From a virus (taxonomy: Duplodnaviria; Heunggongvirae; Uroviricota; Caudoviricetes): 39,433 nt of DNA. A program made the translations under genes and the position numbers. Below the pieces are notes generated by a model. It saw only the letters and a list, made by a program, of their open reading frames with translations, ran no database searches and had not been told where the DNA came from. Of this stretch, positions 701 to 34,614 are shown piece by piece (the first letter of the stretch is position 1; every line of letters starts with the position of its first letter). The stretch is from the IMG/VR virus record IMGVR_UViG_2597489870_000003. One strand, 5' to 3'.

Positions 701-776
<76 letters not shown>

Positions 777-830
777 GTTTAAAAGACATCGGCCTCAAGC
801 GGATGTCTGGCTGAAAGGCCTGAAGAATTT

Positions 831-904
831 GGCGCGTTAACAAAGCGGTTATGTAGCGGATTGCAAATCCGTCTAGTCCGGTTCGACTCCGGAACGCGCC
901 TCCA
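831..904 (+). tRNA. cysT: tRNA-Cys (anticodon GCA)
   Basis: GGCGCGTTAACAAAGCGG...TTGCAAATCC...GGTTCGACTCCGGAACGCGCCTCCA; 74 nt. Confidence 0.95.
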
Positions 905-916
905 CTTTCTTCCCGA

Positions 917-1003
917 GCCCGGATGGTGGAATCGGTAGACACAAGGGATTTAAAATCCCTCGGCGTTCGCGCTGTGCGGGTTCAAGTCCCGCTCCGGGTA
1001 CCA
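917..1003 (+). tRNA. leuZ: tRNA-Leu (anticodon TAA), long variable arm
   Basis: GCCCGGATGGTGGAATCGGTAGACACAAGGGATTTAAAATCCC...GGGTTCAAGTCCCGCTCCGGGTACCA; 87 nt. Confidence 0.93.
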
Positions 1004-26947: not shown

Positions 26948-27122
26948 TGGGGCTGTCCTTTTTACCAGAGCTGAACCATTTTCTGGGTGCCGTCAGGCTT
27001 GAGATTATCAATTTCAGAGAAAACGTAATATTGAATGGCTTCACAAACGGTGGTGTAGGGTGAATTACCTTCTTTAAGTGGCACGATATTATTATTAACG
27101 CGAACCTGGTAATGACTCCAAC

Positions 27123-27626
27123 TTATTGATAGTGTTTTATGTTCAGATAATGCCCGATGACTTTGTCATGCAGCTCCACCGATTTTGAGAACGACAGCGA
27201 CTTCCGTCCCAGCCGTGCCAGGTGCTGCCTCAGATTCAGGTTATGCCGCTCAATTCGCTGCGTATATCGCTTGCTGATTACGTGCAGCTTTCCCTTCAGG
27301 CGGGATTCATACAGCGGCCAGCCATCCGTCATCCATATCACCACGTCAAAGGGTGACAGCAGGCTCATAAGACGCCCCAGCGTCGCCATAGTGCGTTCAC
27401 CGAATACGTGCGCAACAACCGTCTTCCGGAGCCTGTCATACGCGTAAAACAGCCAGCGCTGGCGCGATTTAGCCCCGACGTATCCCCACTGTTCGTCCAT
27501 TTCCGCGCAGACGATGACGTCACTGCCCGGCTGTATGCGCGAGGTTACCGACTGCGGCCTGAGTTTTTTAAATGGCGGAAAATCGTGTTGAGGCCAACGC
27601 CCATAATGCGGGCGGTTGCCCGGCAT
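27123..27626 (-). CDS. insB: IS1 transposase InsB reading frame (expressed as InsAB' by frameshift)
   Basis: 167-aa ORF matching IS1 InsB as recalled. Confidence 0.93.
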
Positions 27627-27820
27627 CCAACGCCATTCATGGCCATATCAATGATTTTCTGGTGCGTACCGGGTTGAGAAGCGGTGTAAGTGAACTGCAG
27701 TTGCCATGTTTTACGGCAGTGAGAGCAGAGATAGCGCTGATGTCCGGCGGTGCTTTTGCCGTTACGCACCACCCCGTCAGTAGCTGAACAGGAGGGACAG
27801 CTGATAGAAACAGAAGCCAC
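27545..27820 (-). CDS. insA: IS1 InsA (transposition inhibitor / N-terminal part of transposase)
   Basis: 91-aa ORF with [23 protein letters not shown]... zinc-finger N-terminus. Confidence 0.93.
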
Positions 27821-28790
27821 TGGAGCACCTCAAAAACACCATCATACACTAAATCAGTAAGTTGGCATCATCACCCGCGAACCTGTATTTCATCGTTATA
27901 CATTGCGATCGAAAGAGGAGTATGCACGAAGGCGACTTCGCCAGGTGTGTCGTCAACCACTGTCTCAATGCTGAAAATCAGTTTTCGCTCATCATTGCCG
28001 CCCCTTGCTTTGGGGGTAGCGGCAGGGATCTGAGATAAAGGCATTCTGCGAAATCCTTCGGCTGCTTCCAGTCCGCATGAAACGTAATGCTGGCGATTAC
28101 CGTCGCTATCTGTCCAGGTCTGTGATGGCAGCTCCAGCGAGATTTCATAAGCATCAACAATGCCCTGGGCAAGGCGTACAAGCGGGGTCAGATCTTCATT
28201 GCGGCGAAAGCTCTCCTTTACCTGCTCCCGTTTTTCTCTTAACTGCTTGTAATTAATGACCATAAGACAGCCTCCATTGATTTCTTTGCTCGTATTTTGC
28301 ACTTACGAAGTATGGTCGGCAAGGTGCCGTATCGCTGACGCGCTTCGCTTGTCTGCTGCTTCGCCGGGGCATAAAAAATTTATGCCCCGACTCTCCAGCT
28401 CCTGTATCAATCAGATAATTTCACGACGCCTTCCAGTTTATCGCCACCATCGACGGTCAGACTCTTACGCAATCCCACCACGTTGACTGTATGTTCTCGC
28501 TGCCTCAGTGCGATTTTGACGGCCTTACCTTTCACCCCATCAAATCAAAAGCCCTCACGCCTTTTTCATGCTCAGCGTGAGAAATATGGCCATTCTGTTG
28601 TGTCTCTGCGACATCGTTCAGGGAATGCTATTTACCCCCTGAAACGCGGGCTGTTCCCCCGTCACCTGCGCGTAGAAAAAACGCGTTTTTTGTGCACGTA
28701 CGGATCCTTGACGGATCCAGCCGCCACGCGGGCCGGAAGTACAAAAAGTCGTTCAAAAAAATTGTGCAAACTTGTGCACTATCGTGCAAA

Positions 28791-28815
28791 CAAAAAAAGC
28801 GCCTTATCGGCGCTT
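28791..28815 (-). terminator. Rho-independent terminator downstream of the 89-aa ORF
   Basis: On the minus strand: AGCGCCGATAAGGCGCT followed by TTTTTTT. Confidence 0.7.
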
Positions 28816-28823
28816 CAAAAATA

Positions 28824-29093
28824 TCAATTGTTGCTGTGTATTAATCGCCAACCACGAACATATGCTTCATAAGCATCTCTGTGCCTTACAGTTCCAGCCT
28901 GGCTAAACGGAATGTTAGCTAAAACTAAATCATTCTGAGCCATAGCGCGTCCTTCAAGCGCATCTTTTATGCCTAGCTCAAAAGCACAGGCAGCGCATTT
29001 GTGCCGACCTTCTTGTCCTTGATATTCAGGGAGAGACAGAAATGTTGGGTTATAACGATGAGGGTTCTTGCAAATACCTGTTTTAGCCCGCAC
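28824..29093 (-). CDS. Hypothetical 89-aa Cys-containing protein (accessory gene near packaging site)
   Basis: GTG start with GAGGT Shine-Dalgarno; Cys cluster (C8, C33, C36); own promoter and structured leader; no family recognised. Confidence 0.5.
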   Translation of the reverse strand: MRAKTGICKNPHRYNPTFLSLPEYQGQEGRHKCAACAFELGIKDALEGRAMAQNDLVLANIPFSQAGTVRHRDAYEAYVRGWRLIHSNN

Positions 29094-29330
29094 TTTATTT
29101 ACCTCATAGGAAAAATATGCGTGCCTTTACAGAGGTGCGTGTAAGCAATAAAATATACGACGCACATTTTGATTTACTTCGGAAGGCACGCATATCAGGT
29201 TAAGTGAGTCCGACCGAGTTCTACGCCCCAATAGTTGCTGCTATTGGGGCGTTTTGCATGGACAATGCCGCGCAATTATCTTGTCGCTCACAATGCGAAC
29301 GATCTTACAAAAAGGCACATTACTGTCAAG
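29094..29330 (-). promoter_or_regulatory. Sigma70-like promoter plus roughly 200-nt structured leader of the 89-aa ORF
   Basis: Minus strand TTGACA (29329-29324), 16-nt spacer, TAAGAT (29307-29302); leader contains a 10-bp-stem hairpin (29224-29251) and a 13-bp inverted repeat ATATGCGTGCCTT/AAGGCACGCATAT whose distal arm is followed by TTTTT just before the ribosome-binding site. Confidence 0.45.
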
Positions 29331-29457
29331 ATAATTGATCGTTTTAATCGATAGATAATAGACAATCTATTTGTTTAACAGATCGATTATTGAAGTAAGT
29401 GCGCCAAATGGAATGATACTGTTTCTATAAATGTGAGCATTTTTCGCGCAGATGCTT

Positions 29458-29769
29458 TTACCCAGGAAATAACGCCCGGATATTCCCAGCCATCTGGCTG
29501 GTTATCTTAGCCACTGGTGCAGACTGTGCTTCAAACTTTTTTGAGCTGATTTGTGTCACAGGTAACATCTCATCATCAGCCCATGCGGCCAGTCGGTAAG
29601 CCTCTGCCGGATTCGTCTTCAGAAGTGCCAGCCCGGCCAGAAAAGCCACGCGTTGGCCGCTTTTGCGGGCTTCTGGTGTAAGGCTGTCCAGCCAGGCGCA
29701 TGCTTCTCCTTCGTTCTTGACGGCAGCTGGCTTCAGATAGAAACTTATTCTTCTGGTTGGTGTCGTCAT
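29458..29769 (-). CDS. parR: ParR/StbB-like centromere-binding adaptor protein
   Basis: 103 aa directly downstream of the parM-like gene; resembles R1 ParR as recalled (R.I.F.L.P...LDS.P...R...A.LAGLAL...NP, C-terminal NI..LFP). Confidence 0.7.
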   Translation of the reverse strand: MTTPTRRISFYLKPAAVKNEGEACAWLDSLTPEARKSGQRVAFLAGLALLKTNPAEAYRLAAWADDEMLPVTQISSKKFEAQSAPVAKITSQMAGNIRALFPG

Positions 29770-29773
29770 TGGT

Positions 29774-30733
29774 TTACTCCTTGTTCATTGCGTACAGCCC
29801 ATTAACCAGAGCAAACTGTGGCACCCCGTCCGCGATGAAAGTCGCATTAACTCCGCAGGCTTCGCGGATAGCGGGTGCCACAATCTCCGCCCCTCCACCG
29901 ACAACCATCACCCGCCCGTAACCGGAAAAACCCGCCAGCGCGCGGATCACTCGTTGTTTCAGTGTCTCCTCCTTTTCACGAATAACCGCCATCAGGCTGT
30001 TGTAATGCGCGTCATTGTGAATGTGCTGGCGCAGCCAGGCTTCATCGTGACGGTGCTCAATAATGGTATTGGCGATGTGGTGACTGGTACGCATACCGTT
30101 AGTGGCCATCACCGACAGCACGGCATCAGCCATCAGGGAAACGCCTACGTTTGGATCGCAAAACACCTGGCTGATACCTGCCAGCTGCCCCTGAACCTTT
30201 GCCACATCCAGCGTGGTTCCGCCCAAATCCACAATCAGCAGGGATTCAAACGGACTCATGTCAGCCAGTGCCTTAAAGCCAGCCGGAATGGATTCAGGCA
30301 TAACCCGTACGTTACGGATAGTGAATGCTTCGCCGTTCTGGTACTCCACCGGGCGCATGACGTTCGCTTTTTTGCGGTTGATGTTGGCCATGTCCGGCTG
30401 TGCGTTTGTGTCGAAATACTCGCTCAGTGGCAGGGTGACAACCACATCCACCTCCTGTGGCGTGATGCCTGATTTGACCAGCGCGTGATGAATGGCGATT
30501 ACATTCACATCGCTGTACTGGTATTGCGTGTCAGTCGTCTGGACAAAACGATCGCTGACCGGATCAAAGCCATAGCGCACGCCATCAAGCATGTAGTTCG
30601 CGGGATGCGTGCCACCGAACGGCGCAGACCATTCCGACTTGAAGCTGTTCGGGCTGATGGCGTTGCGGCGTTCGCCGTTCTCAGTCCATGCCAGCTTGAT
30701 GTTGGTGGAGCCGTCGTCGATACAAATTTTCAT
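29774..30733 (-). CDS. parM: ParM/StbA-like actin-fold partition ATPase
   Basis: 319 aa; IDDGSTNIKL.W, ISPNSFK.EW, YSDVNV.A.HHAL, PESIPAG, DLGGTTLD, GGGAE, LVNG.Y motifs match plasmid R1 ParM/StbA as recalled. Confidence 0.85.
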   Translation of the reverse strand: MKICIDDGSTNIKLAWTENGERRNAISPNSFKSEWSAPFGGTHPANYMLDGVRYGFDPVSDRFVQTTDTQYQYSDVNVIAIHHALVKSGITPQEVDVVVTLPLSEYFDTNAQPDMANINRKKANVMRPVEYQNGEAFTIRNVRVMPESIPAGFKALADMSPFESLLIVDLGGTTLDVAKVQGQLAGISQVFCDPNVGVSLMADAVLSVMATNGMRTSHHIANTIIEHRHDEAWLRQHIHNDAHYNSLMAVIREKEETLKQRVIRALAGFSGYGRVMVVGGGAEIVAPAIREACGVNATFIADGVPQFALVNGLYAMNKE

Positions 30734-30880
30734 GTCGATTTTCCTTATGTTGGTTAATTAACCGTTTACGGGATTTTTAAATCCCGCTTTCGCCTGTTTT
30801 GTGCGCGCTTCATATATCGCGGCGCGTTTTTTGCTCATTTACGGGATTTGTGGATCCCGTTTCTGTCTGTTTTTTGTTTC
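30734..30880. promoter_or_regulatory. parC-like centromere/operator: two 39-bp direct repeats with internal palindromes flanking the putative parM promoter
   Basis: TTTACGGGATTTTTAAATCCCGCTTTCGCCTGTTTTGTG (30765-30803) and TTTACGGGATTTGTGGATCCCGTTTCTGTCTGTTTTTTG (30838-30876); the second overlaps the 3' end of gene A. Confidence 0.55.
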
Positions 30881-33617
30881 CACTGGTCAGGCCACCCTGC
30901 AGCAGGTCTGCTTTGCGGCTGGCGCGTTCAGTGGTTTCACTGATTCTCTGTGCGTGCTCTGCGTCGCGGATGGCGCGCAGCATGTCAGAAAGCACGGTAA
31001 CGGGTGTTTTCATGGTGTTCTGATCCTGCTGAAGTGCGGATGCCAGGCGTGCGGCGGCTTCGGGGTCTGATGCCCCCAGCTGTGCCAGATAGCTGGCGAC
31101 CGGGTTATGGCGGATCTCCGTGCTGCTTACGCCGTGATTACGGCTCAGGTGCTGCCAGAGCTGCGTGATTCGGCTGTCCGGGCGGGTATCCGGTTTGCGT
31201 ACAATTTCATATCCCTGCGGTGCAATGATGCTGCCGTCAACGTACAGGCTGCCGCCCCGTAGCAGGTGCTGCATCTGCTGTTCACCGATATGCAGGCCGA
31301 GAGATTCGGCAGACTCCCGCCATTCTTTAGCGAGTAATTCGTGGTTATCAGGCAAAGGCCGCTGCTGTTTGCGGCTCTGTGTCCAGCTCTGCATTTCATC
31401 ACTGCTGTTTTTTGCCTGTTTGTCACGAAGCGAACGCATCAGCGCCCGGCGTTCGTGCCGTTTCAGTGAGCGCATCCATTCGTTCACTTCAACGCCGTCA
31501 GGAAGCTGCGGCCACGGTGCTGGCCGTTCTTTCGACTGTTCTGTCCCGCTGTTGCCTGTTTCCTGTACACGGGGACAGTTATTGCCACGAGTCCAAGGGG
31601 CGGCAGGGCCGCCCTGAAGGTCAAAACCATTTTCGCGGGCGCTGTCTTCCGCTTCCGGTTTGCGTCTTACCAGCTTCCAGTTATCCGGATGCGTGCACAC
31701 ACGGGAAGACTCCCCGATGAGTGGTGACCAGATCCCGTAAATCTGTACGCTCTGTTCGCCGTAATCGTTCAGCTCATCTGCGAGGTCGTAGGCGGTGCGA
31801 ATCAGGTAGTCTTTGCGTGGAACAAGTACGCCGCCCTGTTTCTCTATGTAGGTGGCAAAACATCCTGCATCAGCGGCAGCGAGTACCGCATCCATTGCGT
31901 CATCCTTCAGCCGTTGCGGGCCTTCCGGGTTGCGTGCCATCTGGCTGGCAAGGCGGCGGAGTTCACGCCACACCTGACGGGAGGGGATGCCAAAGAACTG
32001 GAACTGGCGGACCCGGTGAAGGCGCGCCCAGCCGATGGCGCGTTCCACGCTCTCGGCCATTGATTTTCCGGTTTCGTGGTCAACGCGTGGCTTGCCCGTT
32101 TTCTGGTCGATGCCATCCACGGCGCGGCTGTCCAGGTTCTTTCCGATGTAGGTGGCGATGTAGCTGGTTGGTGTGCCTTTTGAGCCGTCTACGTACTCCG
32201 CCTTAAAACGCGGAGTTATGTCATCGCCCAGCTCGTGGCGGTCTTCCTGAATGGCAATATCGCAGACGTGGGACACGATGGTTTCAATCTCGTCCGGATG
32301 TGCAAAGACCATCATATGCCAGTGCACGGTGCCGTCATGGTGAGGCTCCACCGTGCGGATGCCATACCAGCGCAGGCCGTCGCGGTTCAGTTTCTTGCGG
32401 ACCGCCGCAAAAAACGTGTTAACCAGGTAATCGCTGGAGTCGCGCATGGTGGCCCCGTTCCATTTGGGATTCGGATGACCGTTCTCTGTTGTGGCGTGGT
32501 ATTTTGACGGGCAGGTGACAGTCAGAAACACCGCTTTGTCGCCACGGGCTTCGGCCAGAAGTTCCAGCCCCTTCATGGTGGCCATCATTTCTGCCTTACG
32601 GTGAACCGGGTTACTTACTCCCGCGTAATACACTGTCTCGAGATCAATCGTGAACCCGTCTTCGTTTTCCAGCATGAAACTTTTCAGGAAATCGCGTGTT
32701 TTCTCGCGCTGTGCGCGAAACTCGCTTAACGCGTCCTGGCTCAGATAGGGTGATGTTTTTCTGGAAACCAGACAGGCGGCGCGGAGTTGTTCTTCTCTCC
32801 ACTCGCAACGTAACAGCCACAATTTGCGTTTCCACCATTCCGCACAGGTCAGGCGAAGGATTGCGCCCGGTAACAGTTCCGTATCCGGATCGCTCTTGTT
32901 CAGGGCTTCGTAATGTGGCGGCATGATGTGCAGGCGTAATGCGATACGGGCCAGCATCCGGTAAGCCTTCAACATTACATCCATGGTCAGCTCGCCATCT
33001 CTGGCACCAAAGCCATCGCAGAGTGTTTCGAAGGTGCTGCTGAACATCGCCGCCGTCATGGTGGCCAGCGTCTGTATCTGGTGCTTGTTGAGCTGCGGCA
33101 GGTAAAGCAAATCGTCCAGGCGTTCGCGCCCGGCAAGGGAGCGATAACCCGGTGTCAGCCAGCGCCCGTCAGTGCGATCCAGACGTTCGAATATTTTGCG
33201 CAGGGTCCCGCGCGCGTAGCGTTCAGCCTGCTGGTTCTTTTTACCTTTCTGGCGGTCAGATTCCTGTTTTTTGCGCAGGAAGGAGAGGTGGCGAATAAGC
33301 GGATCGCGCAGATAGGATGGCAGCAGGCGCAGCGAGGCCATGGCTTCATCCACCGCGCCGCGTACCTGCTTTCTGGCGTCTCCTGCCAGTGTGATGGTTT
33401 TGTCCTGTTTTTCCTGTGCGTCCAGGCTTTTATTAATCAGGTTGCCCAGCGGCGTGGCGGAGAACGCCGCATCAGCCATTTCCTGGCAGCGCTCGTTCTC
33501 TGCCCGGTAGGCATCCAGCCAGGAGGAAAGCGCGGATTCAGGAGCGGGGATCCCCGTTCCTTCACGCCCCACTGCGTGGCGCGGTTGCTGCCAGTCCCTG
33601 ATGTACTCTGCCGTCAT
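30810..33617 (-). CDS. Replication initiation protein (P2 gpA-like rolling-circle nickase)
   Basis: 935-aa ORF; central ...TVTCPSKYHATTENG...HDGTVHWHMMVF... resembles the gpA nicking domain (HUH and catalytic Tyr region); position upstream of the accessory slot. Confidence 0.85.
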   Translation of the reverse strand: MTAEYIRDWQQPRHAVGREGTGIPAPESALSSWLDAYRAENERCQEMADAAFSATPLGNLINKSLDAQEKQDKTITLAGDARKQVRGAVDEAMASLRLLPSYLRDPLIRHLSFLRKKQESDRQKGKKNQQAERYARGTLRKIFERLDRTDGRWLTPGYRSLAGRERLDDLLYLPQLNKHQIQTLATMTAAMFSSTFETLCDGFGARDGELTMDVMLKAYRMLARIALRLHIMPPHYEALNKSDPDTELLPGAILRLTCAEWWKRKLWLLRCEWREEQLRAACLVSRKTSPYLSQDALSEFRAQREKTRDFLKSFMLENEDGFTIDLETVYYAGVSNPVHRKAEMMATMKGLELLAEARGDKAVFLTVTCPSKYHATTENGHPNPKWNGATMRDSSDYLVNTFFAAVRKKLNRDGLRWYGIRTVEPHHDGTVHWHMMVFAHPDEIETIVSHVCDIAIQEDRHELGDDITPRFKAEYVDGSKGTPTSYIATYIGKNLDSRAVDGIDQKTGKPRVDHETGKSMAESVERAIGWARLHRVRQFQFFGIPSRQVWRELRRLASQMARNPEGPQRLKDDAMDAVLAAADAGCFATYIEKQGGVLVPRKDYLIRTAYDLADELNDYGEQSVQIYGIWSPLIGESSRVCTHPDNWKLVRRKPEAEDSARENGFDLQGGPAAPWTRGNNCPRVQETGNSGTEQSKERPAPWPQLPDGVEVNEWMRSLKRHERRALMRSLRDKQAKNSSDEMQSWTQSRKQQRPLPDNHELLAKEWRESAESLGLHIGEQQMQHLLRGGSLYVDGSIIAPQGYEIVRKPDTRPDSRITQLWQHLSRNHGVSSTEIRHNPVASYLAQLGASDPEAAARLASALQQDQNTMKTPVTVLSDMLRAIRDAEHAQRISETTERASRKADLLQGGLTSGNKKQTETGSTNPVNEQKTRRDI

Positions 33618-34061: not shown

Positions 34062-34292
34062 TTAATGGAGTTTGTTTTGCTGCTGGATGAGCTGCTGAAG
34101 CTCGCGCAGATCATCCGCCAGATAACTGAAAACAGCGGATGAATAGAGGTTTGAAAGTTCGCAGCTACGCTCATGCAGCATATTGATGTGCATGATTTGC
34201 GCGACGCGTGATGCGCGGGAATGTCTGCGGTTGATTTCAGTCTGGATGTGACGACGCTCCGCGATAGCGCGGTGCTGTTTGCGGTTTGCCAT
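34062..34292 (-). CDS. Hypothetical small basic phage protein
   Basis: 76-aa ORF, Arg/His-rich. Confidence 0.4.
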   Translation of the reverse strand: MANRKQHRAIAERRHIQTEINRRHSRASRVAQIMHINMLHERSCELSNLYSSAVFSYLADDLRELQQLIQQQNKLH

Positions 34293-34614
34293 GGTGTGGC
34301 CTCTACGTGTGTAAGTTTTGAAAACTCACCATCCAGAGCTGCGAAACTGTGGGTGGCGAGACGTACGAGGTTCGCAGTACCGGCAAACGCAGAACCCGGC
34401 CCGACCGAAGTCGGCCCCGTACGCCCCACCATAATTCTGATGCGAAAAAGACGTGGCGATACAGTACGCACAAAAAAACCGCTGGCGCGGTTGTGCGCTA
34501 CGTTTGTCAGCGGGCTGCGAAACCCGGCACCCGTTTTATGAGGTGCAGCGGAAATGTAACCTGACTGATTGCGGCATGGCAAGCGGTTTTTTTGTGTGTG
34601 CATGTTCTGGTTTC

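Follow-up and report, generated by a model that had tools for sequence, protein, structure and literature searches.

Partition systems of the actin type have been described on elements that normally reside in a chromosome. SrpMRC of the SXT/R391 integrative and conjugative elements (ICEs) is silent until the element is activated and then stabilises the circle that replicates after excision (Carraro et al. 2015, PMC4489591), and AlpAC of the Corynebacterium glutamicum prophage CGP3 is encoded by early genes, without which the excised phage does not replicate efficiently (Donovan et al. 2015, PMC4446434). In P2-like phages, a gene pair listed as 'StbA + Plasmid_stab_B' was catalogued at the gpA–gpQ locus in about a fourth of the phages, with its arrangements given in Table S5A, and was termed a 'putative plasmid partitioning system' for which a role in plasmid maintenance was speculated (Rousset et al. 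2022, PMC9122126). Here, we analyze one copy of such a cassette, made up of a candidate centromere (parC), parM and parR, in the virus record IMGVR_UViG_2597489870_000003, a stretch of 39,433 nucleotides that is referred to as a whole as the window. A preliminary description of this DNA had reasoned that an integrative element has no obvious need for a type II segrosome, an argument that is not supported, the SXT/R391 and CGP3 systems being precedents for such a use. As outlined below, sequence comparisons lend good support to the view that the locus is a real, selected and functional parMRC cassette of the R1 family, nearly fixed in P88-like phages, where it probably partitions or positions the circular genomes made by gpA.

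The 3-kb region holding the cassette is 100% identical to the chromosome of enterotoxigenic Escherichia coli (ETEC) H10407 (NC_017633.1, ~2.14 Mb), and the prophage that hosts it belongs to the P2 family, with phage P88 and other Xuanwuvirus (Peduoviridae) as its nearest sequenced relatives. In the RefSeq annotation of H10407, the portal gene, IS1, two hypothetical genes, a plasmid partitioning/stability family protein, the plasmid segregation protein ParM and a replication endonuclease follow one another, and the early genes, the repressor and the integrase are found beyond the endonuclease. The latter ('replication endonuclease' in RefSeq) is gene A of the window (30810–33617, minus strand), a rolling-circle replication endonuclease of 935 amino acids (aa) with a match to Pfam Phage_GPA (E = 8.1e-129). 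The parM gene lies directly 3' of gene A in all loci of the comparison set, which consists of 80 IMG/VR loci together with H10407 and P88 (82 copies).

The 319-aa product of parM (29774–30733, minus strand) matches StbA_N (PF06406, E = 3.3e-82) and the ParM C-terminal domain (PF21523, E = 1.6e-68), and aligns with the R1 ParM structures (1MWM group, E = 8.5e-93) over residues 2–316, that is, over its full length. The nucleotide-binding motifs are kept throughout, as seen for phosphate-1 (DDGSTNIK), the catalytic glutamate (MPESIPAG), phosphate-2 (DLGGTT) and the adenosine motif (GGGAE). Starting 4 nt past the parM stop, parR (29458–29769, minus strand) encodes a StbB/ParR-family adaptor of 103 aa that is recognised by Plasmid_stab_B (PF10784, E = 9.8e-24) and can be aligned with the ParR proteins of R1-type and IncI-gamma/K plasmids at 26–28% identity; its tail, GNIRALFPG, resembles the tail NNIKNLFPDDE of the IncI-gamma/K ParR, which is the closest plasmid ParR. 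These matches bear out the initial assignment of the two proteins as a ParM/StbA ATPase and a ParR-like adaptor, and every reading frame of the preliminary description was found again at its position. A sequence search for a ParR homologue of solved structure returned none. In the AlphaFold2 (AF2) model of the ParR monomer, which is of low confidence (mean predicted local distance difference test score 58.7), residues 1–10 are unstructured, helices span residues 20–29, 32–52 and 54–61, residues 62–85 are disordered and a C-terminal helix covers residues 86–100. This low-confidence model is compatible with a strand-helix-helix arrangement, a monomer being unable to reveal the ribbon of a ribbon-helix-helix dimer.

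Within the comparison set, ParM is 98–100% identical at the protein level and parM is intact in 81 of the 82 copies. The ratio of nonsynonymous to synonymous substitution rates (dN/dS) is 0.055 for parM at a mean dS of 0.08, which shows that purifying selection on this gene is strong, and 0.17 for the C-terminal 380 codons of gene A. Beside this near-invariant ParM, ParR occurs in allele classes of 100%, 82–86% and 51–56% identity to the window copy. Nearly all of this divergence is held by the linker (residues 65–92), which is essentially unconstrained (dN/dS 0.5–1.4), flanked by an N-terminal domain (residues 1–64) with a dN/dS of 0.11–0.12 and by a conserved C-terminal tail, N-I-x-x-[LF]-F-P, with a dN/dS of 0.03–0.23. 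In the ParR of plasmid R1, a flexible linker connects an N-terminal DNA-binding domain to a tail that captures ParM, and judged by this knowledge the pattern of constraint in the phage protein is the layout expected of a ParR.

The candidate centromere is a direct repeat of two 39-nt units, 79% identical and 73 nt apart. Repeat 1 (30838–30876, minus strand, with CGGGATCCACAAATCCCG) sits inside the last ~22 codons of gene A and not in intergenic DNA, and repeat 2 (30765–30803, minus strand, with CGGGATTTAAAAATCCCG) is intergenic, with its end 31 nt before the parM start codon. Each unit carries the palindrome CGGGAT-N6-ATCCCG. Palindromes of this type number three in the whole window, where 0.2 would be expected; the third match is unrelated, and the flank AATCCCGTAAA is common only to the two palindromes of the parC repeats. 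Where the upstream sequence was long enough, nearly every related locus showed both repeats, with palindrome arms that are near-invariant and with spacers and some flanks that vary. We observed no covariation of the ParR allele class with the parC sequence, a result that carries no information, given that the N-terminal strand predicted to read the DNA (RRISFYLKP) is itself invariant. In addition, the A/T tracts in the 167 bp upstream of parM (30734–30900) are phased at 10.75 bp, a value that is reached by 28 of 2000 shuffled sequences; similar results were obtained for the parC regions of plasmids (16 of 2000 shuffles for the R1-type and 7 of 2000 for IncI-gamma/K).

Relatives that have the same gene A type and lack parMR (UMNK88 and 2022E04-002) define the border of the cassette. 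Similarity to these genomes is lost from ~30895–30926, just upstream of repeat 1, which is absent from them, and their 921-aa gene A leads straight into other cargo. Because the divergence begins just upstream of repeat 1, both repeats, parM and parR appear to form one insertion/deletion unit, and by this comparison the par cassette is a discrete unit with its left edge within the 3' end of gene A, which is a new observation. No sigma-70 consensus promoter was detected on the minus strand between 30734 and 30900, a weak or non-consensus site still being possible there, and a ParR-repressed promoter inside parC, as type II systems have, could accordingly not be recognised at the sequence level. 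The two palindrome-containing 39-bp repeats of the preliminary description are confirmed, whereas its statement that they flank the parM promoter is unsupported, since no sigma-70 consensus is present between or around the repeats.

As regards its distribution, the presence of the cassette in P2-like phages is already published and annotated, and is not new as a discovery. The pair is annotated as ParM and partition protein in phages P88, 520873, 503458, phiSM, PhiR44_2 and others, ParM being 98–99% identical in P88, 520873, phiSM and others, and PHROGs has two families of its own for the pair (691 and 2515), each with the label 'partition protein'. The preliminary description, which knew of no P2-family partition system of this build and held that an annotated occurrence of the gene set in known P2-like phages would speak against its reading, is corrected on this point by these annotations and by the published catalogue (PMC9122126). 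A query composed of the 3' end of gene A, parM and parR matched 1438 of 5426 complete E. coli genomes and was contiguous in 1264 of them, so that parMR accompanies this gene A type in 1264 of 1438 genomes. Close relatives of ParM (≥97%) occur in Escherichia, Salmonella and Citrobacter. A ParM of 97% identity was also seen on a 226-kb contig, NZ_JBQPOM010000071.1, assigned to the Gram-positive 'Vagococcus sp. WN89Y', most likely as a result of contamination or mislabelling. The nearest plasmid ParM is 52% identical (IncI-gamma/K1) and the R1-type ParM ~47%; among the best 5000 plasmid records, 4994 have a ParM identity below 60% and the six at ≥95% carry P88-like phage DNA. Since the nearest plasmid ParM stands at 52% and the only other phage homologue in INPHARED is that of phage D6 (48%), the ParMR pair is, as far as these identities tell, an old, phage-specific lineage and not a recent capture from a plasmid. 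In the literature, we found no functional study of ParM in P88, Xuanwuvirus or Peduoviridae, and a 2025 paper on 'genome-encoded ParMs' makes no mention of phages or E. coli prophages (PMC12270681).

Taken together, these results suggest a model, with SrpMRC and AlpAC as its precedents, in which ParR dimers would bind the two palindrome-bearing 39-nt sites of parC, which lie on one face of the helix at a distance of 73 bp. ParM-ATP filaments would be captured by the C-terminal tail that is conserved in ParR, and the growing filaments would push apart or position the double-stranded circular genomes that gpA makes by rolling-circle replication once the phage has infected a cell or been induced. 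The products of P2-type replication are monomeric circles. The benefit could lie in an even spread of the replicating circles, leading to efficient replication and packaging, or in inheritance by both daughters before integration or lysis. The early region through gene A to parR lies entirely on one strand, and no strong minus-strand terminator was found between gene A and 28816; because this same-strand block holds neither a consensus promoter nor a strong terminator in between, parMR is probably expressed with gene A, and would be active when the phage is extrachromosomal and not in the quiescent lysogen. The timing of parMR expression, the binding of ParR to parC and the benefit are what we infer, and this role in partitioning or positioning gpA-made circles is the one that we consider probable.

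Several points weigh against this model. About 12% of the genomes with a P88-type gene A do not have the cassette and parM is broken in phage 503458, which indicates that the cassette is dispensable for viability. The candidate parC consists of two sites of inverted symmetry, unlike the ten 11-bp direct iterons of R1, and AF2 modelled the ParR monomer with low confidence only. A weak, ParR-autoregulated promoter that is active in lysogens may remain compatible with the missing consensus, and it is not obvious what would be gained from pushing circles apart in a lytic cycle. Moreover, our literature search found no experiment or expression data on this cassette, and no expression evidence for ParM or ParR could be retrieved from enterohaemorrhagic E. 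coli (EHEC) transcriptome and proteome data.

A bolder reading, which we rate as doubtful, is that the ParMRC of P88-like phages sustains a transient, heritable episomal phase (pseudolysogeny), or that the parC residing in the chromosome lets ParM filaments act on the host chromosome of lysogens. In the former case, genomes made by rolling-circle replication would be actively partitioned, a cell in which the phage has entered or spontaneously excised could go on dividing and pass the phage to both daughters ahead of integration or lysis, and a partition-stabilised carrier state would exist in a phage family that is regarded as strictly integrative.

It is unlikely that the cassette allows P88-like phages to persist as low-copy plasmids, that is, as facultative phage-plasmids, in line with the speculation already in print (Rousset et al. 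2022, PMC9122126). By its family matches, this is a bona fide plasmid-type partition system, and one complete P88-like genome, NZ_CP148288.1, has been deposited as a plasmid (34,461 bp, circular); it carries int, cox, gene A, parMR and the structural genes, comes from an E. coli isolate of a cat and is classed as non-mobilizable. A 26.8-kb Shigella record is also known. In contrast, the places that match the region in the 5426 complete E. coli genomes are chromosomal in 1716 cases and on plasmids in two (1704 versus two in another search), and the integrase, Cox and repressor are intact. Most of the 'plasmid' matches are records of 0.2–1.4 Mb and not phage-sized circles. The phage of NZ_CP148288.1 itself has a 99.9%-identical twin integrated in the chromosome of a sister strain, a human isolate with a strain name built on the same scheme, and the assembled circle may simply be an induced replicative form. 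Furthermore, the family matches include no theta-type plasmid replicon, only the rolling-circle initiator gpA. Because of the 1716 versus two census and the presence of the integrase, a regular plasmid lifestyle of P88-like phages is unlikely, and the phage-plasmid reading, which the preliminary description gave as one possibility, is disfavoured.

A function in the lysogen, exerted from the chromosome, appears quite unlikely. Under this reading, ParR at parC would mainly regulate transcription or form a roadblock where gene A ends, or ParMRC would separate sister prophage loci and thereby the arms of the host chromosome; repeat 1 of parC does overlap the stop region of gene A, and the ParR of R1 is an autorepressor. 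The chromosome-encoded ParMR systems with a functional parC and unknown role that have been documented (Ali et al. 2025, PMC12270681), as well as the lack of ParABS in enteric bacteria (PMC12270681), would also fit such a function. On the other hand, no promoter-like site for lysogenic expression is present, the chromosomal positions of the prophages vary widely, and a role as a mere regulator would not hold ParM at the low dN/dS reported above.

The position of the cassette raises the question of exclusion or defence, in which ParMRC would interfere with competing phages or with plasmids of related centromeres (incompatibility). The gpA–gpQ interval is a P2 hotspot (PMC9122126), and genes nearby include toxin–antitoxin pairs, an AAA+/S8 protease, DUF3800 and DUF4760. 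The preliminary description had likewise placed the cassette in the accessory slot where P2 carries tin and old, a position that it described as a widely reported anti-phage defence hotspot. Its location in the gpA–gpQ interval holds; however, in the 82 loci parMR lies upstream of the truly variable slot. The latter, slot 1, extends from 29457 to ~28800, and the DNA of the window is found there in only 12–15% of loci, as compared to a conservation of 98–100% for parMR; elsewhere, the cargo of slot 1 consists of toxin–antitoxin pairs, an AAA+/S8-protease pair, DUF3800, DUF4760, PIN and other genes. The same AAA-ATPase and S8-peptidase pair follows directly after gene A in UMNK88 (L089), which has no parMR, and after parR in locus L059, which carries parMR, so that the cargo of the hotspot is exchanged regardless of the par cassette. 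Our comparison thus places the real hotspot in slot 1, with parMR upstream of it and not turning over with its cargo, which is a new observation. In addition, ParM, ParR, orf89 and the truncated ORF (both described below) have no PADLOC match, and cross-incompatibility with plasmids is unlikely because no plasmid ParM is more than 52% identical. With four proteins negative in PADLOC and an occupancy that is not swappable, we rejected the defence reading as very unlikely, no link of the cassette to defence having been found.

Finally, the ~12% of relatives without the cassette and the one phage with a fragmented parM might suggest an inert relic of an old plasmid–phage recombination carried along by linkage to gene A. 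We rejected this reading as hardly credible, since it conflicts with the selection data: parM and both functional ends of ParR are under strong purifying selection, only the linker drifts neutrally, 81 of 82 parM copies are intact and the centromere arms are conserved.

Downstream of slot 1, a non-coding block of 470 bp (28800–28330) is conserved in 98–100% of loci and divides two independent variable slots, the second and smaller of which (slot 2, 28330–26948) holds the DNA of the window in 20% of loci. A core of 74–76 bp within the block (28329–28404) also occurs, at the same locus, in a P2-like element that is otherwise unrelated, and the cos site of P2 has been placed between gpA and gpQ (Rousset et al., PMC9122126). 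From its conservation, the shared core and its position, the block is probably the cos/packaging region; a search with a P2 cos 19-mer, allowing up to three mismatches, gave no match. In slot 2, an ORF of 187 aa in relatives (PHROG 5091), intact in ~20% of related loci, is split by an IS1 of 768 bp (27108–27875, minus strand), leaving its N-terminal 142 codons at 27876–28302 (minus strand; called in the window as a truncated reading frame at 27871–28302) and a C-terminal remnant at 26962–27107. The 9-bp target duplication CGCGAACCT flanks the element at 27099–27107 and 27876–27884, and among the loci compared the insertion is present in H10407 only. The IS1-disrupted ORF of the preliminary description is hence accounted for as a clean insertion into slot 2.

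Slot 1 of the window is occupied by the orf89 cargo cassette (28824–29329, minus strand), which is separate cargo and not a part of the par cassette. It comprises a promoter-like site (TTGACA-16-TAAGAT, 29329–29302), a leader of ~200 nt and an ORF of 89 aa (28824–29093, minus strand), and is followed by an intrinsic-terminator-like hairpin (28796–28816, minus strand), the top-ranked terminator-like site on this strand downstream of gene A. The leader folds significantly better than its shuffled versions (z = -3.84), in agreement with the Cys-containing ORF with a structured leader noted at first. Opposite the leader, a promoter-like site on the plus strand (TTTACA-17-TAAAAT, 29126–29154) lies upstream of a hairpin (29223–29252) that is followed by TTTT and would form an intrinsic terminator as read on the plus strand, so that a candidate cis-antisense small RNA would be encoded within 29126–29257, its predicted transcript being ~95 nt long (29160–29257). 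A second allele of the cassette, which encodes a 92-aa protein of 63% identity, retains the promoter and the operator-like palindromes as well as the hairpin, its A-run and the -35 element on the antisense side. Because the hairpin, A-run and antisense -35 element are retained, this suggests that orf89 is controlled by a cis-antisense RNA. No known RNA family was found in the leader at Rfam gathering thresholds, and at E ≤ 1 it showed only a weak, terminator-like resemblance to ctRNA and sar.

The orf89 protein (PHROG 3941), which has no RefSeq annotation in H10407, is present in only ~12–15% of related loci. A word-indexed search returned near-identical proteins only, and an exhaustive search uncovered a wider family, which forms at least 172 clusters when grouped at 50% identity. 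Invariant in this family are C8, H12, R30, G41, Q65 and R70, and near-invariant H31, C33, C36, S64 and H71, giving a C-H-(H)-C-C pattern, which suggests a zinc site, and the motif SQAG..RH. The domain is also found fused to DndB-like, WYL, HNH and NOV_C proteins, and a confident AF2 model of orf89 had no match in PDB or BFVD.

Two further observations concern other parts of the window. At 34349–34546 on the minus strand, just upstream of a small gene (~34062–34292) called 'derepression protein' in P88 and of gene A, Rfam recognises a tandem of two RNAs, C4 antisense RNA (80.4 bits) and the Hfq-binding RNA isrK (69.6 bits), which suggests an antisense-controlled antirepressor module of the P1/P7 or Gifsy style in a P2-family phage. 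A cluster of three tRNA genes is located near the left end of the window (701–1000, plus strand).

The cassette is present in about a quarter of complete E. coli genomes, including those of O157:H7, ST131 and ETEC lineages, and is strongly selected. In an integrating, rolling-circle phage, an actin-type segrosome might aid replication or positioning, stabilise a carrier state or act on the chromosome; a role of any of these kinds would add to the knowledge gained from the SXT/R391 ICEs and prophage CGP3, and would be of relevance to the question of what 'genome-encoded ParMs' do (PMC12270681).

Compared with the catalogue entry of Rousset et al. 2022 (PMC9122126), the cassette is the very same and shows no structural difference. 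However, while it was counted there as one of the systems of the hotspot, our data place it upstream of the variable slot and disfavour a plasmid lifestyle. With AlpC/AlpA/alpS of CGP3, the locus has in common an integrated prophage that encodes an actin-like filament former and a DNA-binding adaptor with upstream binding sites, although AlpC belongs to another actin-like lineage, the gene order differs (alpA is co-transcribed with alpC) and the host is Gram-positive. SrpMRC offers a likeness of circumstance, as an actin-type partition system on a normally integrated element that is replicated by a rolling-circle initiator when excised. It is carried by an ICE and not by a phage, SrpM/SrpR are distant from R1 ParMR whereas the phage pair is a close member of the R1 family, and its function has been shown by experiment, whereas the role proposed for the phage cassette is deduced.

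The ParMRC systems of R1 and R100 (StbA/StbB; IncF, IncI-gamma/K) have the same order of parC, parM and parR as the phage cassette. The phage ParM aligns with this type from end to end and with all nucleotide-binding motifs, ParR is of the same Pfam family, and the region upstream of parM is likewise A-rich with phased A-tracts. The differences lie in the identity of the proteins, which is only 47–52% for ParM and 26–28% for ParR, and in the centromere, which in R1 is formed by ten tandem 11-bp iterons around the promoter and in the phage by two 39-nt units of inverted symmetry with no recognisable promoter. Overall, an R1-type cassette that in R1 serves a theta-replicating, low-copy plasmid is found here on an integrating element with rolling-circle replication.

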